Shown: piece after piece, positions 40,928 through 49,609 of the stretch
Layout of the letters: every line of letters starts with the position of its first letter
How positions within the stretch are numbered: position 1 is the stretch's first letter
Assembly: GCA_016861025.1 (NCBI GenBank)
Contig: BOKO01000006.1
Span: 106,839-170,838 of the forward strand
DNA length: 64,000 nt
Reading direction: 5' to 3'
From: Chloroflexota bacterium
GTDB lineage: Bacteria > Chloroflexota > Anaerolineae > Caldilineales > Caldilineaceae
The notes under the pieces: model-generated
Told to the model about the DNA's origin: nothing
Database searches by the model: none
The model's input: the letters and a program-made list of their open reading frames with translations, nothing else
Translations under genes and position numbers: made by a program

Positions 40928-42892
40928 TTATCGCTCGCTCAGCGCCCAGTCGAGCAGCTGATTTGCCTCGCGCACGCGTTCGTATTCGCGGCGCGCTTTG
41001 ACCAGCACGTCGCCGAGCGCGTCGATGCGTTGCAACAGATCGTCCTCGCTGGACGCCGATTCCCACGCCTCGCGCAGCAGATCCTCGAACGATTTGGCGC
41101 CGTCGACATTGCCCAAGATCATGTCCAGTTCGCCGATCACCAGCTCGAACATGCGAATCTTGCGCGCCAGCAGGTCAAGCACGTGCGCCTCGATCGTCTC
41201 GTTGCAGCTCAAATTGAAGATCGTCACGTCATGCTGCTGCCCAAGCCGGTGCAGACGACCGATGCGCTGCTCGACGCGCATTGGGTTCCACGGCAGGTCA
41301 TAGTTGATCAACTGGTGGCAGAACTGTAGATTGCGTCCTTCAGCGCCGCTCTCCGTGCTGACCAGAACGCGCGCGCCGCCCTCCGCTTCGGGCTTGCGGA
41401 ATTGGGCGATTGCCGCTTCCTTCTGCTGGATGTCCAACCCACCATGAAAGCCCACCGCCGGCACATTGCGTTGCATCAACCCAACCAGAATGCTCTCCTG
41501 CGTTCGCCGATATTCGGTGAAGATGAGGAACTTGCCCGGAAAACGATCCAGAATTTCCAGCACAGCCGCCAGTTTGCGACTTTGCGGGATTGCCTCCGCC
41601 AGCGCCAGAAAACGCTGTAGCTCAGCGCGCACCTTCTCGCCGTGGGCCGCGTCCGCCAGCATCTTGCGCAGCGTCGTTGCCAGCGCCTGCGGGCTGCTGC
41701 TCAGCTCCTTTTGCAGCGTCAACAGCGTCAGGCGCAGATGTTTGGTGCTGTCGGCGTCGTTGAATCGCCGGCGGATGTATTCGGTGACCTCGCGATAAAG
41801 CCTCCACTCCGCCTCGCTCAGCTCCAGATGATAGATGGCGGCCTGGCGCCGCGGAAACTGTACGTTGACTTTGCTGCGGCGGTTGCGGATCATCACATCG
41901 TTGAGCAGGCGACGCAGCGAGGAGGCGTTGCGCGGCTGGCGCGGGTCGTAGCCGTCGAGAAAGTGGCGGCGGAAGGCGCGCACCGTACCCAATTGCCCTG
42001 GCGCCAGAATCGTGATCAGGCTGTACAGCTCCATCAGGTCATTCTGCACCGGCGTGGCCGTCAGCATCAGCACATAGCGCTTGCGAATCTGGTTGACGAA
42101 CTCCCACGCCAGCGTGCTGCGATTCTTGAGCTTGTGCGCCTCATCGACGATCAGCAGATCATAGTCGCGCGCCAGGATCGCAGCGCGCTGATGGGCGAGC
42201 TTGGCGCGATCGAGGCTGGCGATCCAGCGCCCATGCTCCGCTTGCTGCACAGCCTGCCACGCAGCGGGCTGCTCCATCACGCTGAACTCCTCGTAGAACT
42301 TGGTCTGCAGCTCCTCGCGCCACTGTTCGGTCAGCGAGGCGGGGGTCAGCACCAACACCGTGCGCACCAGGCCGCGGTGGATCAGCTCCTTCATGATGAT
42401 GCCGGCTTCGATAGTCTTGCCCAGCCCCACTTCGTCGGCAAGCAGAGCGCGCCCGCGCATCTCGCGCAGTGCACGCAGCGCCGCCTCCAGTTGATGTTCA
42501 TAATGCTCGACCACGATCTCGTCGAGGCAGATCAGACGGTCGAAGCCGCGGCTCAGACGCAGCGCCTCCGCTTGCAGACGAAGCTGGTAGACAGGCAGCG
42601 ACTCCGGTGCGCGGGCGCGCCCATGCGCCCGGAAAAAATTCTCCAGATTCTGTGGCGTCTCGATCAGGCGCGGCGGCAGCGTCACCCCCAACTGCGCAAT
42701 GCGCTCCGCCATCGAGTGATCGACGTTGTAACGATAGCCGCAGCGGAAGCACTGCAACGCAGTCTCTTCGTCCAGCCAACCGCACTGCGGGCAACGCTTG
42801 CCGACGACCGCCTCTGCAGGCTGCTGCTTCTTCTTCACCGGTTGGGTTGGCTGTTCTGGAATCTCCAGCCACTCGAATCGTTCGGTTGTCAT
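40928..42892 (-). CDS. SNF2-family helicase with N-terminal zinc ribbon
   Basis: CPQCG...CFRCG; ALLADEVGLGKTIE, IVDEAH, LTATPVQN, STESGAEGRNLQ, WNPMRVEQRIGR. Confidence 0.92.
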   Translation of the reverse strand: MTTERFEWLEIPEQPTQPVKKKQQPAEAVVGKRCPQCGWLDEETALQCFRCGYRYNVDHSMAERIAQLGVTLPPRLIETPQNLENFFRAHGRARAPESLPVYQLRLQAEALRLSRGFDRLICLDEIVVEHYEHQLEAALRALREMRGRALLADEVGLGKTIEAGIIMKELIHRGLVRTVLVLTPASLTEQWREELQTKFYEEFSVMEQPAAWQAVQQAEHGRWIASLDRAKLAHQRAAILARDYDLLIVDEAHKLKNRSTLAWEFVNQIRKRYVLMLTATPVQNDLMELYSLITILAPGQLGTVRAFRRHFLDGYDPRQPRNASSLRRLLNDVMIRNRRSKVNVQFPRRQAAIYHLELSEAEWRLYREVTEYIRRRFNDADSTKHLRLTLLTLQKELSSSPQALATTLRKMLADAAHGEKVRAELQRFLALAEAIPQSRKLAAVLEILDRFPGKFLIFTEYRRTQESILVGLMQRNVPAVGFHGGLDIQQKEAAIAQFRKPEAEGGARVLVSTESGAEGRNLQFCHQLINYDLPWNPMRVEQRIGRLHRLGQQHDVTIFNLSCNETIEAHVLDLLARKIRMFELVIGELDMILGNVDGAKSFEDLLREAWESASSEDDLLQRIDALGDVLVKARREYERVREANQLLDWALSER

Positions 42893-42953: not shown

Positions 42954-43002
42954 TTGACAATCATTTTCACAAATGGTACAATTGTGAAAATAAATTTCAC
43001 AA
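42954..43002 (+). promoter_or_regulatory. Sigma70 promoter of the rpiR operon with overlapping palindromic operator
   Basis: TTGACA (42954-42959), 17 nt, TGnTACAAT (-10 at 42977-42982); ttgtgaaa-ataaa-tttcacaa (42982-43002); extra half-site tttcacaa at 42965-42972. Confidence 0.8.
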
Positions 43003-43019
43003 CTCAATATTGATAATCC

Positions 43020-43883
43020 ATGGACAACCAGAACAACCACGATCGCGGTGCGCTGGCAATCATCTCTGATGCGCTGCCAAAGCTGACCGGCTCAGCTCAA
43101 AAGGTGGCGCATTACATTCTGAATGCGCCGCGCGAGACGATCAACCTGACCATTACAGAACTTGCCATCAAGGCGAATGTAAGCGAAGCAAGCATCGTTC
43201 GTTTTGCTCAGTCGCTAGGCTATAGCGGTTTCCACGCGCTGAAGATCAGCCTCGCCGAAGACATCGTTTCGCCCATGTTGCTTGTTCATGAAGACCTGAG
43301 TCCAGAGGATAGCCTCGGTGTTTCCGTGCAAAAAGCCATCACGGCGGGTATGCGCTCCCTGGAAGACACACTGCGCATTCTGAATGTGTCTGTACTGGAA
43401 TCGGTGATTCAGGCATTATGCAACGCCCGCCAAATCGAGCTGTTTGCGTCGGGCAACTCGATTCCGCTGGCAATGGATCTGAACTTCCGGTTGACCAAGA
43501 TTGGGCTGCGCAGTCGGTTTTCCATTGATCCGACCATGCAGGAAATGTATGCCAGTCTGACGTCTCCTGAAGATGTAGCCGTAGGAATTTCACACACGGG
43601 CAGTTCAATCGACACGGTTCATGCATTGGAGCTGGCAAAACAGCGCGGCGCGACTGCGGTCTGCATCACAAACCACTCAGACTCGCCGCTTACGCGCCAT
43701 AGTCATTATTGCTTGTTCACATCGACGCGGGTCAGCCAATTTCGCGAAGAAGAGATGGCCTCCAATCTGGCGATGCTGGCGCTCACAGAAGCAATTTATG
43801 TAGGCATCTGTGTACGGCGCTCTGATGCATCGATTCAGGCGGTCTCTAAAACAATGCGGGCGACCCGACATCGCAAGTATTGA
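43020..43883 (+). CDS. MurR/RpiR-family transcriptional regulator (HTH + SIS)
   Basis: 'KVAHYIL...TITELA...VSEASIVRF..LGYSGF..LK'; SIS 'VGISHTGSS..A..AK..GA..VCITN...SPL'. Confidence 0.95.
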   Translation: MDNQNNHDRGALAIISDALPKLTGSAQKVAHYILNAPRETINLTITELAIKANVSEASIVRFAQSLGYSGFHALKISLAEDIVSPMLLVHEDLSPEDSLGVSVQKAITAGMRSLEDTLRILNVSVLESVIQALCNARQIELFASGNSIPLAMDLNFRLTKIGLRSRFSIDPTMQEMYASLTSPEDVAVGISHTGSSIDTVHALELAKQRGATAVCITNHSDSPLTRHSHYCLFTSTRVSQFREEEMASNLAMLALTEAIYVGICVRRSDASIQAVSKTMRATRHRKY

Positions 43884-44129
43884 ATGCAAAGGACAAGAGA
43901 GGAAATAACAGAGGAGGTGAAGGCTGCAGATCGAGGAGAAAGTTTGAAGTTGTAACGCAAGAAAAGGAGGAGAGGGGATGCCGGTTGTCCTGGCCGGCGA
44001 ACGGCATCCCCTCAAGCAACGTCATAGGGAAACGTTCCAGTGCGCTGCACTGGAGGTGAACTCCCTTTGCCGCTGTTGGGCTATTCTACCGCACAATGTC
44101 CATTTTGTTTACCGAGGAAACGCGAGAAA

Positions 44130-45410
44130 ATGAACAAGAGAGTCATCAGTCTGTTTCTGGTCTTGACTTTGCTCGTCGCTGCCGTCAGTGGGTGCACCAT
44201 TGTTGCACCACAAGCTGCACCCGCGGCGCCTGGCGACGGAACCGTAACGCTAGAGTTCACACAATGGTGGGAGCCAGAACTGCCGGCTGGCGCGTTCCGT
44301 GCGCTGATGGATGAGTTCGAAGCGCAGAATCCCGGCATCAAAGTTCAGTTGATCAGCGGCCCCTATTCCACCACCCGTGAGCAGGTGGTGGCAGGCGCCG
44401 CAGCGGGCACAATGTCAGATGTGGTTGGATTGGATGGCGCCTGGGTCAATGACTTCGTCAAACAAGGATCGTTGGCAAACTTGAGCGATCTGATGGCGCA
44501 GGCAGGCTACGACGACAGTGAATTGGCGGCGCAAATTCAATTGAACGGCGCCACCTACATGATCCCGGTGGTCAACTTCGTCTATCCTGTGTTTGTCAAT
44601 CTGGATTTGATGGAGGCGGCGGGCATCTCTAACCCGCCTGCCACGCGCAGCGAATTTGCCGCTGCCGCCGCCGCATTGGTGGATCCGGCCAACAATCGCT
44701 ATGGTTGGGTGTTGCCATTGTCGTTGGAACAGCCGAACGGCATCCAAAACGACGTCATGTCTTGGGTGTGGGCGTCTGGCGGCAGCATGATGGCGGATGG
44801 ACAGCCGGACCTGACCAACGATGCCGTGCGCAGTGTCGCGGAGTTCATCAAGGGTCTGTACGACGCTGGCGTCATTGCCCCTGGCGCCTTCTCGATGCGT
44901 GAACAGGACAAGGTTGAGGAGTTTGTCAACGGCCGCGTCGGCATGATGATCAGCAGCCTGGCGCACATCAACATGATCCGTGAGCGCAATCCTGAACTGA
45001 ACTTTGCCATCACGGCGATCCCGGCAGAAGACGGCTACACCGGCAGGCGCGGCTTACCGTACGCTTCCTGGGGCATCGGCGTCGCCGCCAATAGTCCGCA
45101 TCAGGCCGAGGCGTGGAAACTGGTCGAATTCCTGATGAGCGCAGAGACCAACTCCAGACTTTCCTCGATTGCCAATGCCTTCCCTGGCAATATCAACTCA
45201 ACGCCTGATTTCGTACAGACAGATGAACTGTTTGGCGCAGCGTTTGAGGTTTTCCAGGCCGGCTATCTCGCCAACGAGTTTGTCGGTTTGCCAGTAGCTG
45301 AAGAGCTGATGCGCCTCTTCTCCGAACAGTTCCAATTGTACCTGGACGGCAGCCAATCACTCGATGATGCGCTCAACAATGCACAGGAAGCCTGGATGGC
45401 GTATTTCTAG
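44130..45410 (+). CDS. Sugar ABC transporter substrate-binding lipoprotein
   Basis: Lipobox VAAVSGC; 'FEAQNPGIKVQL', SBP_bac_1-type features, 'EAWKLVEFL'. Confidence 0.92.
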   Translation: MNKRVISLFLVLTLLVAAVSGCTIVAPQAAPAAPGDGTVTLEFTQWWEPELPAGAFRALMDEFEAQNPGIKVQLISGPYSTTREQVVAGAAAGTMSDVVGLDGAWVNDFVKQGSLANLSDLMAQAGYDDSELAAQIQLNGATYMIPVVNFVYPVFVNLDLMEAAGISNPPATRSEFAAAAAALVDPANNRYGWVLPLSLEQPNGIQNDVMSWVWASGGSMMADGQPDLTNDAVRSVAEFIKGLYDAGVIAPGAFSMREQDKVEEFVNGRVGMMISSLAHINMIRERNPELNFAITAIPAEDGYTGRRGLPYASWGIGVAANSPHQAEAWKLVEFLMSAETNSRLSSIANAFPGNINSTPDFVQTDELFGAAFEVFQAGYLANEFVGLPVAEELMRLFSEQFQLYLDGSQSLDDALNNAQEAWMAYF

Positions 45411-45467
45411 GCAATAAAATTTCGGAGGTCAACAGTGCAGCATACGCGGCGCCGTTGACCAAACCCA

Positions 45468-45522
45468 GGTTTGCTGGAGGCTGTGCAGGCAGTAGTTTGA
45501 TCCTTGCAGCCTCCGGCAAACC
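45468..45522 (+). other. Stem-loop after the SBP gene (likely mRNA stabiliser)
   Basis: ggtttgctggaggctg (45468-45483) / cagcctccggcaaacc (45507-45522), one G-U pair. Confidence 0.65.
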
Positions 45523-45601
45523 CCATGCGGCAGAGATACTGGTTTCTCCCTCGTCTTGGCGTTCTGCGTCGATGGTTGAGGAAGATCGAGGAAACGCGTT
45601 C

Positions 45602-46483
45602 ATGCAGAAAGTCATTAGAAAATCCACCCCGTTTCTCTATCTTTCACCCACGATCCTATTGCTGACGATTCTGTCGCTCATTCCCATCGCGATGGTTTTC
45701 ACCTACTCGCTCATGGACAATGTCGTCATGAATCGGAACCCGGTGTTTGTTGGCATCGCGAATTATGTGGAAATCCTTACCAATAGCGTCTTTCAGCAGG
45801 CGTTTTCCAACACGATGTACTTCACAGTAATGAGTGTTGTCTTTCACCTGATTCTCGGCCTCTCATTCGCCATGTTGTTGAACGCCAGGATGCTCAGCCC
45901 GATCGTCAAGGCATTCTTTCGGACGATCTATATCTTGCCCTGGGTGTTTACTGCGACCATCATAGCGATCCTGTGGCGGCTGATGCTGAATCCGAACGGC
46001 GTGGTCAATTATCTGCTCGCCACTGTCGGATTGATCGACAGCCCGGTTGAGTGGCTCAGTTCCAGGCAACTTGCCTTACACTCCGTCACCTTTATCAATA
46101 TTTGGGCGGGCTACCCCTTCTATATGGTCAGTTTGTTGGCCGGTTTACAAGGAATTCCCGAAGAGCTATACGAGGCAGGCACAATCGACGGCGCCGATCG
46201 GCGACAGCTTTTTTGGTACATCACAATCCCACAGTTGAAACCGATTATTGTCAGTTTAGCGATGCTGGATTTCATCTGGACAATGCATCAATTCACCTTG
46301 ATTTGGATGACCACTGGGGGCGGACCGATTCGCGCCACCGAGATGTTGAGCACTTACACCTATAAGCTGGCATTCAGTTCGTACCAGTTTTCACATGCGT
46401 CGGCAAGCGCGTTCATCATTCTCGCTTTGTCGGCGTTTGTGGCGCTCTTCTATGTCCGACAACAAAGGGCGACCGATGAATAA
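45602..46483 (+). CDS. Sugar ABC transporter permease (MalF/UgpA-like)
   Basis: FVGIANY; EAA motif LQGIPEELYEAGTIDGA...ITIPQLKP. Confidence 0.93.
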   Translation: MQKVIRKSTPFLYLSPTILLLTILSLIPIAMVFTYSLMDNVVMNRNPVFVGIANYVEILTNSVFQQAFSNTMYFTVMSVVFHLILGLSFAMLLNARMLSPIVKAFFRTIYILPWVFTATIIAILWRLMLNPNGVVNYLLATVGLIDSPVEWLSSRQLALHSVTFINIWAGYPFYMVSLLAGLQGIPEELYEAGTIDGADRRQLFWYITIPQLKPIIVSLAMLDFIWTMHQFTLIWMTTGGGPIRATEMLSTYTYKLAFSSYQFSHASASAFIILALSAFVALFYVRQQRATDE

Positions 46484-47327
46484 TACACTTTCCAAACCTG
46501 TAAAAAGCGGCGTCACCCGCGCTTTGCTGCTGCTGGCGCTGCTGGCTGGCGCGCTATATGCGGGGTTTCCGGTTCTGTGGATGATCTCATCCTCATTCAA
46601 ATCGAACACAGAAATTTTCGCCTATCCGCCGCGCCTCATCACCGATTCCTTTTCCCTACGCACCTATGCGTCGGTGCTCTCCAATCCTGAAAAAGTGCGC
46701 TTCTTTCTCAACAGCTACCTGGTTTCCATACTGGTGACCATCTGCACATTGATTGTCGGCGTCTTTGCCGGGTACAGTTTCAGCCGCTACAACTTTAGAT
46801 TCAAAAAGCCGCTGAATATGATCATCATTAGCATCCAGGCTGTGCCGCCGATTACGCTGCTAATCCCATATTTTAGTCTGATCGTGGCGCTTCAATTGTA
46901 TAACACCTATACTGCCCTGGTGCTCACCTACATGGTCTTCACCCTCTCCTACGCCATCATCATGATGACCGGTTACTTCAACACCTTGCCGCGTGAATTA
47001 GATGAGGCCGTGATGATCGACGGCGGCAGTTCCCTTGTCGCCCTCTGGCGGGTGCTCGTCCCGATCTCTCTGCCCGGCATCGTATCGGTGGGCGTCTATA
47101 CCTTTATGATCGCCTGGAACGAGTTCCTGTTTGCCTTGACGCTGACAAAGACAAACGACATGCGCACAGTTCCTGTCGGGATTCAATTGTTGATGGGGCA
47201 ACACTCCTACGAATGGAATGAGATGATGGCAATGAGTGTGCTCGGCTCTTTGCCCGTCTTGCTTCTCTTCCTGTTCTTCCAGCGTTACTTTATCGCCGGA
47301 ATGACCGCAGGATCGGTCAAAGGATAG
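46476..47327 (+). CDS. Sugar ABC transporter permease (MalG/UgpE-like)
   Basis: EAA motif LPRELDEAVMIDG; AWNEFLFAL; FQRYFIAGMTAGSVKG. Confidence 0.93.
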   Translation: MNNTLSKPVKSGVTRALLLLALLAGALYAGFPVLWMISSSFKSNTEIFAYPPRLITDSFSLRTYASVLSNPEKVRFFLNSYLVSILVTICTLIVGVFAGYSFSRYNFRFKKPLNMIIISIQAVPPITLLIPYFSLIVALQLYNTYTALVLTYMVFTLSYAIIMMTGYFNTLPRELDEAVMIDGGSSLVALWRVLVPISLPGIVSVGVYTFMIAWNEFLFALTLTKTNDMRTVPVGIQLLMGQHSYEWNEMMAMSVLGSLPVLLLFLFFQRYFIAGMTAGSVKG

Positions 47328-47431
47328 TAGTGACCGATTCTGTGTTATCAGATAGTTGTTGTTCATCGGTTTGTTTTTTCGATAGTTCGTTTACTTTTAT
47401 GTCATAAAAAGGTTATGGGGGTATATTTCTT

Positions 47432-48295
47432 ATGTTGATGAACATGAAAGATTTGTTGGCTGTGGCGCGCGCACATGACTTCGCGGTTCCAGCCTTCAAT
47501 ATCAGCAGCAATATGTTGCTGACCGGGGTTATGGAAGCTTCGGAAGAAAAACAGTCGCCTGTCATCCTGGCAATCCATCCGGATGAACTGCATTTCGTCC
47601 GCATTTCTTTTGTCAAGGCAGCCATTGAGGAAGCCATCAACGCGTCTATTCCGGTTTGCATTCATCTAGACCATGGCGCATCGGTGGCGCATGTCATAGA
47701 AGCCATTCGCTGCGGCTTCACCTCCGTGATGATCGACGCCTCGGCATATCCACTGGAAGAGAACATTGCAATCTGCAAAAAAGTCGTTGAAATTGCCCAT
47801 GCCGTTAACGTCTCCGTTGAAGGTGAGTTGGGCACCATTGGCACAACCGGCCCAGAAGCGGAAGCTGGTGCAGAAGAAATTATCTACACGAACCCAGATG
47901 ATGTTGTGACCTTTGTAAATGCCACCGGCGTCGATACGCTGGCTGTCGCCATTGGCACCTCCCACGGCATCTACCCAAAGGATAAAAAACCAGAACTTAA
48001 ACTCGAATTGCTGAAGGAAATCCGTTCTCGCGTGGATATCCCGCTAGTCCTGCATGGCGGCTCTGCCAACCCCGATGAAGAAATCGCCGCCGCAGTCAAG
48101 CTCGGCATCAATAAAATCAATATTTCCAGCGACATCAAGGACGCCTTCTATCAGAAATGCCGCGAGGTGTTGGCTAACCCTGTCTTGCGCGAGCCGAATT
48201 CGATCTACCCACCCTGTATCGAGGCGATGAAAAAGGTCGCCCGCTTCAAAATTGACCTGTTCGACGCCACAGGCAAGGCCGCGCTCTACAAATAA
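47432..48295 (+). CDS. Class II ketose-(bis)phosphate aldolase
   Basis: AVPAFN, HLDHG, SVMIDAS, VEGELG, AVAIGTSHG, LVLHGGS, KINI. Confidence 0.93.
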   Translation: MLMNMKDLLAVARAHDFAVPAFNISSNMLLTGVMEASEEKQSPVILAIHPDELHFVRISFVKAAIEEAINASIPVCIHLDHGASVAHVIEAIRCGFTSVMIDASAYPLEENIAICKKVVEIAHAVNVSVEGELGTIGTTGPEAEAGAEEIIYTNPDDVVTFVNATGVDTLAVAIGTSHGIYPKDKKPELKLELLKEIRSRVDIPLVLHGGSANPDEEIAAAVKLGINKINISSDIKDAFYQKCREVLANPVLREPNSIYPPCIEAMKKVARFKIDLFDATGKAALYK

Positions 48296-48333
48296 TAACC
48301 CCGGTCAGCCTTGATTACAGACTAACGGGTATG

Positions 48334-48363
48334 CTTCCAGGAAGTGCAGGAGCTTCCTGGAAG
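48334..48363. repeat. Paired near-palindromes forming an 11-bp hairpin (REP-like)
   Basis: cttccaggaag (48334-48344) and cttcctggaag (48353-48363). Confidence 0.6.
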
Positions 48364-48406
48364 TTGTCACACCCACTCTACGCTTGCAATAGATGACAAA
48401 CGCTTT

Positions 48407-49609
48407 ATGTCAGAACAAATTGCCCTGGGTTTCGGCAACAATGTAGATTACGAGATACTCTGGGATTCCCGCGTCGTGGAAGACTTGATCGTCCGCCACG
48501 ATATCCATGCCAACGAACTGAACCAGGAGCGAGAGATTGATTCAGAGCGCGACCTCGTCATTTCGATTCTATGCTTCTTGCGCTCTGGGAACGGCGGCGA
48601 ACGCTTTGTTGCTTCGTCGGATATTATCGAACGCTTTTCACAACGATTTACAAAGAAAATCACCCTGGGCGGAACGTCGGTGCGCGCTGCGGTGGCGATG
48701 CGCACGCTCGGCTATCGTTCGGCGCTCCATCTCGTCACCATCAACGACCACGTGCGCAGGCTCATTCCAGCCGACAGCTTTTATGTGTGCAGCAATTCAC
48801 AAGACACCCTCTACCCACATCTGATTGTGCAGTTCGACGAAGGAACGCGGGTGTGCGCCAACGATATCGACATTCGCAGCAATCGCGCCAACCGCATTAT
48901 CTATCACAACGACACCGACAACATTCGTATGCACCTGAACGAGGAGTTCGCACAGCTAGTCACGAACGCAAAGGTGCTGCTGGTTGCCGGTTTCAATGCG
49001 ATGCAAGACCGCACCCTCCTGCTCGACAGACTGCACACTGTGTTGCGCATCATGCAACACCTGCCCAAAGACGCCCTGGTCTATTGTGAAGATGCCGGTT
49101 TCTATGACCCGAGCTTCCGAAAGCTGATCTATACCACCTTAGCCGGTCGCATCAACATCTACGGCTTGAACGAGGACGAGCTTCAGTCACATCTGGGTAG
49201 AAATCTGAATCTGCTAGATGCTGAGCAGATGAAAACGGCGTTGGAAGATCTGCACCAACTGATTGGCGTCCCACACATCGTCGTGCATTCCATGCACTGG
49301 GCGCTCGCCTATGGCGAAAACGCAGAAAACATGACAAACGCACTCAAAGGCGGTGTGACAATGGCGACCACACGGTTTCGCTACGGCGATGACTTCACAC
49401 CAGAGAATTACAGGGAAGTGGAGGAGCTGCCGCCCAACCCCAAAGGCTTTGCCTTTAGCAGAGCGATCAAACTGCTCCTGGGCAGTAAAATTTGCTGCAC
49501 CCCAGTCGCACAGGTTGACCAGACAAACGCAACGACGGTGGGTCTCGGCGACGCGTTTGTTGGCGGCTTTTTGCCCGGGCTATTACCCTCAGCAGCCAGA
49601 TCATGGTAA
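48407..49609 (+). CDS. ADP-dependent glucokinase/phosphofructokinase-family kinase
   Basis: IALGFGNNVD, LGGTSVRAA, YGLNEDEL, C-terminal TTVGLGDAFVGG anion-hole motif. Confidence 0.85.
   Translation: MSEQIALGFGNNVDYEILWDSRVVEDLIVRHDIHANELNQEREIDSERDLVISILCFLRSGNGGERFVASSDIIERFSQRFTKKITLGGTSVRAAVAMRTLGYRSALHLVTINDHVRRLIPADSFYVCSNSQDTLYPHLIVQFDEGTRVCANDIDIRSNRANRIIYHNDTDNIRMHLNEEFAQLVTNAKVLLVAGFNAMQDRTLLLDRLHTVLRIMQHLPKDALVYCEDAGFYDPSFRKLIYTTLAGRINIYGLNEDELQSHLGRNLNLLDAEQMKTALEDLHQLIGVPHIVVHSMHWALAYGENAENMTNALKGGVTMATTRFRYGDDFTPENYREVEELPPNPKGFAFSRAIKLLLGSKICCTPVAQVDQTNATTVGLGDAFVGGFLPGLLPSAARSW

Follow-up and report, generated by a model that had tools for sequence, protein, structure and literature searches.

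Several catabolic routes are known in which a ketose is converted to a ketose 1-phosphate that is then split by an aldolase into dihydroxyacetone phosphate (DHAP) and an aldehyde. This logic is seen in mammalian fructolysis, which relies on ketohexokinase and aldolase B, and in engineered xylulose-1-phosphate routes; of these two enzymes, the first is an ATP-dependent kinase of the PfkB type and the second a class I (Schiff-base) aldolase. ADP-dependent sugar kinases are known as archaeal glycolytic enzymes and as the animal ADPGK. In Escherichia coli, the YdjH/YdjI pair, named in RefSeq as L-glycero-L-galacto-octuluronate kinase and the respective 1-phosphate aldolase, likewise combines a kinase with an aldolase of the Pfam family PF01116 acting on a ketose monophosphate. 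The same pairing is found in the sulfo-EMP2 pathway (SqvD, SqiK, and SqiA), which splits a 6-substituted fructose 1-phosphate into DHAP and an aldehyde (PMC9594981). Its kinase SqiK belongs to the PfkA family, and its gene clusters also carry a sulfoquinovosidase, a sulfoquinovose (SQ) isomerase (SqvD), and sulfolactaldehyde enzymes (PMC9594981). Here, we describe an operon with a PF01116 aldolase and a kinase of the ADP-dependent family (PF04587) that was found in a member of the Caldilineaceae (Chloroflexota), within a stretch of 64,000 nucleotides of contig BOKO01000006.1 (assembly GCA_016861025.1, positions 106,839 to 170,838), referred to below as the window.

The operon comprises six consecutive genes on the + strand (window positions 43020 to 49609), encoding, in this order, an RpiR-family regulator, a substrate-binding protein (SBP), two ABC permeases, the aldolase, and the kinase (Table 1). 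Pfam and NCBIfam assignments were concordant and agreed with the gene content proposed in an earlier reading of the same DNA from sequence alone. They also bore out its statement that the operon has no isomerase, dehydrogenase, glycosidase, or ABC ATPase gene: none was detected when the open reading frames (ORFs) of the window were scanned. The genes are best explained as an inducible catabolic cassette that probably converts a neutral ketose, through its 1-phosphate, to DHAP and an aldehyde, a reading that we draw from the sequence features described below. The importer, of the CUT1 type and using a MalK-type ATPase encoded elsewhere, would take up the free sugar. The PF04587 kinase would phosphorylate the primary hydroxyl beside the keto carbon, probably with ADP as the donor, and the aldolase, a member of the NCBIfam subfamily PRK08185, would split the ketose monophosphate into DHAP and an unphosphorylated aldehyde. 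With a hexulose as the substrate, this aldehyde would be glyceraldehyde, left to general metabolism.

The first line of evidence comes from the conservation of the cassette. A total of 80 loci were collected from species-representative genomes, and their ORFs were called by a naive procedure, which is weakest in high-GC metagenome loci, and clustered; a kinase ORF was called in 77 of them. In these 77 loci, the kinase is accompanied by the aldolase in 70, by the two permeases in 70 and 68, and by the SBP in 63, and no other enzyme is conserved. The aldolase gene lies upstream of the kinase gene with a median gap of 64 bases (70 of the 77 loci), and tblastn searches placed an aldolase next to the kinase in 79 of the 80 genome loci and in 73 of 80 metagenome loci. 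The remaining recurrent neighbors are opposite-strand genes confined to closely related genomes of Aggregatilineales/Phototrophicaceae. Since the SBP, permeases, and aldolase stay with the kinase in 63 to 70 of the 77 loci, this gene arrangement is far from chance, and the six genes represent a real, self-contained sugar operon that is nearly unchanged in several bacterial phyla.

The carriers, which represent at least five phyla, include 60 entries from Chloroflexota, among them bins that, to judge by their names, derive from sponges, as well as 10 from Bacillota (Clostridium sediminicola, Ruminiclostridium cellobioparum subsp. termitidis, and a Lachnospiraceae isolate, among others), 4 from Spirochaetota, and one bin each of Trueperaceae and Latescibacterota. 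A separate scan, seeded with fused kinases, revealed an actinobacteria-like metagenome branch with the same SBP-permease-permease-aldolase-kinase order, usually with a divergently transcribed gene for a DeoR regulator. The SBPs of the cassettes in other phyla are 60 to 85% identical to that in the window, and the aldolase is 79 to 80% identical to those of Ruminiclostridium and Eubacterium. The closest relatives of the kinase come from Caldilinea, Litorilinea, and other Anaerolineae bins. Its distribution is patchy: when 15 further genomes of the genus were searched, only 7 proved to have it, at no more than 62 to 69% identity, and an even sampling of 201 genomes across the phylum yielded 2 carriers. 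In a tree built only with FastTree, the window kinase falls inside a Caldilineaceae group, and some of the Bacillota entries and the Trueperaceae entry are nested among those from Chloroflexota. This pattern suggests an accessory cassette with occasional transfer across phyla. A recent horizontal arrival in this particular genome, which the patchiness and the GC content of the cassette (0.53, compared to 0.60 in the rest of the window) might have indicated, was not demonstrated, as the kinase groups with those of other Caldilineaceae.

The second line of evidence is provided by the aldolase. Only two NCBIfam models are passed by this protein: NF006042 (PRK08185, an unnamed class II aldolase subfamily), with 436.2 bits against a cut-off of 405, and TIGR00167 (cbbA, the broad ketose-bisphosphate aldolase subfamily), with 268.7 bits against 215.6. 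On all NCBIfam models for fructose-bisphosphate aldolase (FBA) and tagatose-bisphosphate aldolase, equivalog or subfamily, it stays under the cut-off, scoring 277 to 283 bits with the FBA equivalogs. The catalytic, zinc, and DHAP-site residues (Asp80, His81, Glu130, Glu132, His178, His208, Lys228, and Asn230) are invariant in the cassette aldolases and include the motifs HLDHG (Asp80 and His81), GTSHG (His178), and LHGGS (His208), the zinc/catalytic IHLDHG being standard. Because all these residues are kept, the expected reaction is formation or cleavage of the C3-C4 bond in a ketose phosphorylated on C1. The differences lie elsewhere. The sequence-only reading had pointed to nonstandard IHPDE and NISSD motifs; both are present, and they prove to be signatures of the subfamily rather than chance variants. 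The form HP[DES]E is found in 72 of 78 aldolase matches from the genome loci and in all 47 matches from the metagenome loci that cover the site, whereas the aligned FBAs of Thermus, Bacillus, and Staphylococcus have SEGA, SVGA, or SQGA in this place. NIS[SA]D is nearly invariant in the cassette aldolases, where FBAs have N(V/I/T)(D/N)T(D/E). Finally, EP(N/S)S (generally, EPxS) replaces the DPRK motif of FBAs, and DPR is absent from all 138 cassette aldolase matches. In class II FBAs of E. coli and Mycobacterium tuberculosis, the Ser of the first motif (Ser61) and the Arg of DPRK (Arg331) are reported to hold the distal (C6) phosphate. YdjI, a ketose-1-phosphate aldolase by its RefSeq name, similarly lacks both the SEGA-type and the DPRK motifs. 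The cassette aldolase can thus be predicted, from its sequence, to act on ketose 1-phosphates, i.e., on monophosphates. No basic residue is gained at the replaced motifs (His-Pro-Asp-Glu and Glu-Pro-x-Ser), and these replacements argue against a sulfonate, carboxylate, or phosphate group at the far end of the substrate.

The third line of evidence is the kinase, whose assignment to the ADP-dependent family has held up. In contrast to its PF04587 score (Table 1), the match to the PfkB model reaches only 27.1 bits, and an AlphaFold2 (AF2) model (pLDDT 95.7), built from an alignment of 59 sequences, gave Foldseek matches with TM-scores of 0.71 to 0.84 to ADP-dependent glucokinases (ADP-GKs) and phosphofructokinases (ADP-PFKs) (PDB entries 3drw, 5od2, 5k27, 1ua4, 4b8r, and 5ccf; E values from 5e-24 to 3e-17), compared to only 0.39 to 0.51 for ATP-dependent kinases of the ribokinase type. 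By sequence alone, the relation to solved structures is distant (1ua4, E value of 7e-7). The family forms a distinct bacterial clade with 475 representatives at 50% identity at E values up to 0.001, and 171 at E values up to 1e-30.

To map the active-site residues, profiles were aligned with ancMT, the E72A form of that protein, and the ADP-GK of Pyrococcus furiosus and were read with the roles set out for an ancestral ADP-PFK with bound fructose 6-phosphate (F6P) (PMC7948494). According to that work, Lys179 and Arg212 (AncMsPFK numbering) are restricted to PFKs and bifunctional enzymes and hold the phosphate of F6P, as does Asn181; the family Arg contacts the beta-phosphate of ADP, and a Glu (E90/E72) is confined to glucokinases and bifunctional enzymes (PMC7948494). 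In the cassette kinases, Asp14, Arg163, Glu258, and the GLGD motif with its catalytic Asp (Gly379-Leu380-Gly381-Asp382) are invariant, and Asn255 and Glu256 of the NEDE motif are nearly so; Asn12, at the Asn position of the N-terminal NxD motif, is present in both the window protein and the consensus. An invariant Glu65 aligns with the residue altered in the ancMT E72A crystal form, that is, with the Glu of the glucokinase/bifunctional type, and the invariant His138 occupies the position that is Asn (N181) in PFKs and His in glucokinases. On the other hand, the equivalent of Lys179 is Tyr or variable, and that of Arg212 is a nearly invariant Asp169, so that the phosphate-binding set Lys179/Asn181/Arg212 of ADP-PFKs was not found at the aligned positions. 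With the glucokinase-type Glu and His kept and the PFK-type Lys and Arg absent, the pocket looks to be made for an unphosphorylated sugar and not for F6P; it appears glucokinase-like, yet not that of a plain glucokinase. Invariant residues particular to this family are Arg93, Gln142, His294, Trp298, Arg323, and Asp328. ADP is the likely phosphoryl donor, given the family, the conserved Arg163, and the modeled fold, and the protein is a predicted ketose 1-kinase for a neutral sugar. In the ESM Atlas, its relatives carry automatic names of the "ADP-dependent GK/PFK" type, along with a single low-ranked "Khk" cluster at 0.91, which was taken as a lead only. A 702-aa aldolase-kinase "fusion" (P0273) was set aside: it covers only the first 166 residues of the aldolase and is probably a frameshifted gene call.

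Taken at face value, database names such as "ADP-dependent glucokinase/phosphofructokinase" and the FBA equivalog scores would make the pair an ADP-PFK and an FBA of ordinary glycolysis, with the importer as an accidental neighbor. Such an explanation is hardly credible in view of the lack of the Lys179/Arg212 equivalents in the kinase and of SEGA, DPRK, and any FBA equivalog-level score in the aldolase. The patchy occurrence of the kinase likewise suits an accessory rather than a core gene, and the kinase is linked to an importer and, in 35 of the 77 loci, to RpiR, a sugar-phosphate-sensing regulator. Moreover, four PfkA-family matches were found elsewhere in the genome, so that the pair should not be the glycolytic PFK and FBA of this organism. 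Three PfkA-family (PF00365) matches lie within approximately 5 kb of each other on contig C1 (29565-35861; L086, L185), two of them in a single 766-aa frame. This unusual tandem of phosphofructokinase-like genes adjoins a 666-aa open frame that matches PF01116 weakly (46 bits). To judge from these residues and genes, the cassette is not a route of F6P/fructose 1,6-bisphosphate (FBP) glycolysis, and its substrate is probably not a sulfo-, phospho-, or acid sugar. A second PF01116 gene, located on contig C20, was considered for the role of the housekeeping FBA but was dropped as atypical. It has ILDHG in place of HLDHG and does not reach the cut-off of any NCBIfam model. In this locus (C20:3934-7680; L085), the aldolase gene (L085:1399-2262, - strand) is flanked by a 457-aa sugar-kinase-like ORF (L085:2361-3734, - strand) and an SBP-like ORF (L085:3-1220, - strand), and it may represent a further kinase-plus-aldolase sugar cluster in the same genome.

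Independent evidence on the aldolase reaction was sought in 401 genomes of Bacillota that were searched with NF006042. Only four genomes had proteins over the cut-off, many of the matches below it being ordinary FBAs with SQGA, NIDTD, and DPRK. In C. sediminicola, which is among the four, the protein is that of the ABC-kinase cassette. The remaining copies above the cut-off (L217-L220, in genomes G394, G430, and G468) belong to small operons with a regulator of the Mga/PRD type, the EIIA_2, IIB, and EIIC components of a phosphotransferase system (PTS), and a PRK08185 aldolase. No kinase was seen among the scanned neighboring ORFs of these loci (some small ORFs were left out of the scan), and the other neighbors are unrelated genes, for instance those for a phosphate ABC system or for an ABC-F protein. 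These PTS-linked aldolases score 412 to 509 bits with NF006042, are 54 to 57% identical to the window aldolase, and share with it HP(D/T/N)E, NISSD, and (D/E)PNxIYP. In one of these loci, L220, PF01116 is matched by a second gene as well, which is more divergent. Sugars taken up by a PTS reach the cytoplasm as monophosphates, and in the fructose-family systems the phosphate is placed on C1. Thus, whereas the window cassette has an ABC importer and a kinase, these operons leave phosphorylation to the PTS during uptake, under an Mga/PRD regulator, and retain an aldolase of the same NCBIfam subfamily as the sole enzyme among the scanned ORFs. They look like a PTS-fed route of ketose-1-phosphate cleavage, and in the simplest reading of this comparison, the PRK08185 subfamily cleaves a sugar monophosphate, with the ABC importer and kinase standing in for the PTS in the window cassette. 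In gene content, the PTS operons are probably similar to the uncharacterized frz operon of extraintestinal E. coli. The published account describes frz only as a carbohydrate operon (PMC12928451). An E. coli control genome passes the NF006042 cut-off, though YdjI of strain K-12, which is 37% identical to the window aldolase, scores 218 bits. At this score, well below 405, the idea that PRK08185 was built around YdjI was ruled out.

The sequence-only reading had proposed a kinase step followed by aldol cleavage of a ketose monophosphate, and this part is supported by an aldolase that lacks the distal-phosphate motifs, by the glucokinase-type motif of the kinase, and by the PTS-linked sister aldolases that work without a kinase. 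Its alternative, a ketose already substituted at C6, fared less well: the absence of a basic replacement residue in the aldolase and of the Lys/Arg pair in the kinase speaks against phospho- and sulfo-sugars, leaving a 6-deoxy ketose as a possible substrate. In a broader version of this alternative, a ketose or keto acid with a charged tail would be phosphorylated by the keto group and then cleaved to DHAP and an acidic aldehyde. Its substrate could be sulfofructose, as in sulfo-EMP-like routes, a sugar phosphate taken up as such, or an acid of the keto-uronic or deoxy-keto-aldonic type, the kind that YdjH/YdjI or IolC/IolJ handle. Precedents are provided by the kinase/PF01116 aldolase pairs SqiK/SqiA (PMC9594981) and YdjH/YdjI (RefSeq names). 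Binders of the CUT1 type include proteins for sulfoquinovosyl glycerol and glycerol-3-phosphate, and the extra invariant residues Arg93 and Arg323 of the kinase family would fit as well. Another pointer is the locus of a Spirochaetales bin (L072:1079-4976) in which the kinase, aldolase, and DeoR genes adjoin a different importer in place of the CUT1 type. It consists of an SBP_bac_6 protein, a 568-aa fusion of two permeases, and an ATPase similar to MalK, an architecture that resembles that of the AfuABC importers of sugar phosphates. Still, the Ser and Arg motifs of the aldolase have given way to HPDE and EPxS with no basic residue gained, and the kinase keeps the glucokinase-type Glu and His and not the residues that bind the phosphate of F6P. 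It also comes from a different family than SqiK (PF00365) and YdjH/IolC (PfkB), and neither a sulfoquinovosidase, SQ isomerase, sulfolactaldehyde enzyme, or exporter nor a dehydrogenase is conserved next to the cassette in the 77 loci. A substrate with a charged tail is therefore unlikely.

Regarding the importer, the SBP_bac_1 protein and the two BPD_transp_1 permeases constitute a CUT1 set with no ATPase gene in the operon. Such importers ordinarily share an ATPase encoded elsewhere, and the genome has at least six open frames of 365 to 391 aa for MalK-like proteins outside the operon. Sequence and fold searches with the SBP retrieved only generic CUT1 binders at approximately 16 to 21% identity, with nothing specific on the ligand; the AF2 model of the SBP (pLDDT 79) likewise led to generic CUT1 proteins, whose ligands are sucrose, maltose, and trehalose. 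These structures, the closest that have been solved, and the usual preference of CUT1 importers for di- and oligosaccharides could indicate a glycosylated ketose (isomaltulose, leucrose, turanose, or trehalulose), in which the free C1 hydroxyl would be phosphorylated and the ketose part cleaved, leaving a glycosyl-aldehyde. The remodeled distal pocket of the aldolase is in line with this idea, and glycoside-active proteins are encoded near some of the cassettes, such as a GH65-HAD fusion in L047 and proteins with CBM35/ricin domains in L045. However, these neighbors vary from locus to locus, and among the 77 loci the cassette has neither a glycosidase nor a phosphorylase as a conserved companion. 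CUT1 binders of monosaccharides and polyols exist as well, including the tagatose binder 5ci5, which is only a distant match to the window SBP. We know of no precedent for aldol cleavage of a glycosylated ketose phosphate, which counts against this explanation, and the PTS-linked sister aldolases suggest an ordinary monosaccharide phosphate. Accordingly, a glycosylated substrate is very improbable.

Some hints at the identity of the sugar come from lineages in which the cassette has been extended. A D-lyxose isomerase of the cupin type (PF07385, 315 bits) is encoded directly after the cassette in five loci of Bacillota, and a shorter, weaker relative is found in two more (7 of the 80 genome loci). 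A different cupin domain, similar to class I phosphomannose isomerases (PMIs), is fused or adjacent to the kinase in the actinobacteria-like branch, where 28 of 80 loci show it; one such protein is P0274 of Jiangella gansuensis. Hence, the operon is minimal in this genome, as the earlier reading had it, but not in some other lineages, which add an aldose-ketose isomerase. D-lyxose isomerases and class I PMIs interconvert aldoses of the manno or lyxo configuration, or their phosphates, with ketoses of the fructose or xylulose configuration. By comparison across the loci, the cassette probably starts from a manno- or lyxo-configured aldose in the isomerase-bearing lineages and from the ketose itself in those that, as here, have no isomerase. 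Because the isomerases added to the cassette in other lineages are of the manno/lyxo type, the most likely class of substrates is that of ketoses with the D-threo configuration at C3/C4: D-fructose, D-xylulose, L-sorbose, sedoheptulose, or 6-deoxy-fructose. As the most abundant of these in nature, D-fructose is the leading single candidate, though its odds are put rather low. In two related metagenome loci (L138:12342-13466 and L152:11343-12467), a glycerate kinase gene (PF02595, 364 bits) follows shortly after the kinase gene on the same strand, which weakly suggests that the aldehyde product could be glyceraldehyde, oxidized to glycerate.

The PMI-like fusion can also be viewed differently. 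If the kinase were an ADP-dependent gluco-, manno-, or glucosamine kinase that produces a hexose 6-phosphate, the aldolase would act in a separate step or would depend on an isomerase and a further kinase from other parts of the genome to supply its substrate, and the fusion in that one branch could provide the path from mannose through mannose 6-phosphate to F6P. The glucokinase-type Glu and His, together with the catalytic set of the family, fit this scheme. It is nevertheless quite unlikely: the kinase and aldolase genes are almost never separated, FBP is an improbable substrate of an aldolase lacking the bisphosphate-aldolase motifs, two glucose-contacting residues of true ADP-GKs are consistently altered in the kinase family, and the sister aldolases operate behind a PTS with no further kinase.

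Several points weigh against the proposed ketose-1-phosphate route. The substrate, the phosphorylated position, and the choice of ADP over ATP are all inferred, and SEGA and DPRK are a putative distal-phosphate site. The altered positions in the kinase are two Gln residues that contact glucose in ADP-GKs (changed to Thr90 in one case and to Asn in the other), and Arg93 and Arg323 could bind an acidic group. Disaccharides are the ligands of the proteins that are structurally nearest to the SBP. Only a minority of the loci have an isomerase, and searches for PF07385 gave no match in this genome, which is 97% complete, or in two of the five other carrier genomes checked. There is no gene for handling the aldehyde in the cassette, and fructokinase is the usual and cheaper entry for free fructose.

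A candidate site for regulation of the cassette precedes the RpiR gene. The regulator has the N-terminal HTH_6 and C-terminal SIS domains that define the RpiR/MurR family, and every NCBIfam match to it stayed under the equivalog cut-off. Its gene accompanies the cassette in the 35 genome loci mentioned above; in 16 more, the same position is taken by a separate cluster of approximately 286-aa proteins with no Pfam identity. A promoter-like site overlaps an inverted repeat (Table 1), next to which lies a third half-site, TTTCACAA, at 42995-43002. In a pattern search of the 6.39-Mb genome, the two half-site arrangements were perfectly matched nowhere else, and a reversed control pattern gave 0 matches. 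The promoter and the repeat thus make a plausible RpiR operator, at which the regulator, through its SIS domain, would probably sense the phosphorylated intermediate and free the promoter. A second convincing site was not found in the genome-wide pattern search. The sole near match, TTTCACAA-N9-TTTTGAAA, with one mismatch and identical spacing, is located on contig C8 (36815-36839; L091:1501-1525), 18 bases before the gene for a 161-aa predicted lipoprotein, and may mark a member of the regulon or be due to chance.

Table 1. Genes of the operon and its predicted regulatory sites (window coordinates)
Feature	Position	Strand	Evidence
Promoter-like site TTGACA-17-TACAAT with TG extension, 5' of the RpiR gene	42954..42982	+	Consensus scan, 11/12 matches, best of the region
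Candidate RpiR operator, inverted repeat TTTCACAA-N9-TTGTGAAA over the promoter, with a third half-site	42965..43002	.	Sequence pattern; binding inferred
RpiR/MurR-family regulator	43020..43883	+	Pfam HTH_6, 77.8 bits, and SIS, 66.9 bits
CUT1-type substrate-binding lipoprotein	44130..45410 (ORF open from 44040)	+	SBP_bac_1, 120.5 bits; also SBP_bac_8
ABC permease 1, MalF/UgpA-like	45455..46483	+	BPD_transp_1, 57.5 bits
ABC permease 2, MalG/UgpE-like	46395..47327	+	BPD_transp_1, 63.5 bits
Class II (zinc) aldolase, PRK08185 subfamily	47432..48295	+	PF01116 (F_bP_aldolase), 318 bits
PF04587 (ADP_PFK_GK) kinase	48407..49609 (ORF open from GTG 48344)	+	122.6 bits, cut-off 27

Some of the open frames are probably longer than the genes that they contain. 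The most likely start of the SBP is the ATG at 44130, which yields a lipoprotein signal with the lipobox ...AAVSGC, and that of the kinase is the ATG at 48407, giving 400 aa, as in its relatives, including the 99%-identical P0004. By comparison with relatives of approximately 307 to 310 aa, permease 1 probably starts at the ATG at 45572 or 45602; permease 2, with relatives of approximately 279 to 283 aa, probably starts at the ATG at 46476, overlapping the stop codon of permease 1. Two CTTCC[A/T]GGAAG palindromes at 48334-48363, between the aldolase stop codon and the likely kinase start and inside the overlong ORF that opens with GTG, could form a hairpin acting on translation of the kinase or on transcript stability. 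The flanking genes are unrelated to the cassette in both Pfam and NCBIfam assignments: a gene for an SNF2 helicase lies upstream on the opposite strand, and trpB and trpA follow downstream. The SNF2 helicase (40928-42892, - strand), itself unrelated to the sugar operon, is matched in part by the NCBIfam models for DISARM DrmD, DpdE, and RapA, with scores that fall far short of the cut-offs.

If the proposed route is correct, a single ADP-derived phosphate would be spent before cleavage, and the route would extend over Chloroflexota, Clostridia, Spirochaetota, and Actinomycetota, with a PTS-fed twin in Bacillota. A large bacterial clade working in a catabolic operon would extend the ADP-dependent family to a sugar specificity and a physiological role that are both new to it. 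There is also a practical side to these assignments. The PRK08185 subfamily is labeled only "hypothetical protein" in NCBIfam, and annotation pipelines name both genes after glycolytic enzymes (PFK/GK and FBA), so that reconstructions of metabolism in Chloroflexota and other uncultured groups are distorted. The sugar in question is narrowed to a short testable list, namely, neutral ketoses phosphorylated at C1 and cleaved to DHAP and an aldehyde, and cultured carriers are available for such tests in C. sediminicola, R. cellobioparum subsp. termitidis, and J. gansuensis. For the synthesis of rare ketoses, too, a class II aldolase accepting unphosphorylated aldehydes could be of use.

Comparison with the described systems places the cassette near several of them. 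The kinase shares its fold with the archaeal and eukaryotic ADP-dependent kinases of PF04587 (1ua4, 3drw, 5k27, and 6xio), as well as the Asp, Arg, NXXE, and GXGD elements and the glucokinase-type Glu and His. However, it is only 14 to 21% identical to them, belongs to a separate bacterial clade, is shorter (approximately 395 aa in the cassette, compared to approximately 450 to 470 aa), and is encoded beside an aldolase in a catabolic operon, whereas those enzymes serve central glycolysis. In the ydj operon, the YdjH kinase is of the PfkB family, the substrate is a sugar acid, and the operon includes dehydrogenases, a reductase, and transporters of the major facilitator superfamily, accessory proteins that are absent from the cassette. 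None of the sulfo-EMP2 marker enzymes is found in the operon or conserved in the 77 related loci. Ketohexokinase and aldolase B are not homologous to the cassette enzymes at the family level, nor are they members of an importer operon. In the literature that was searched, neither this cassette nor an ADP-dependent kinase for ketoses from bacteria is described. It is conceivable, though we would not yet wager on it, that the cassette contains the first ADP-dependent ketose 1-kinase (an "ADP-ketohexokinase") and that PRK08185 is a dedicated family of class II ketose-1-phosphate aldolases, the two together forming a bacterial counterpart of liver fructolysis. With its different kinase family, different aldolase subfamily, and absent accessory enzymes, the cassette falls outside the YdjH/YdjI, IolC/IolJ, and sulfo-EMP2 systems. 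Judged by the sequences of its genes, it follows the same design as these systems and liver fructolysis but is a member of none of them, being an uncharacterized variant of a known pathway design.

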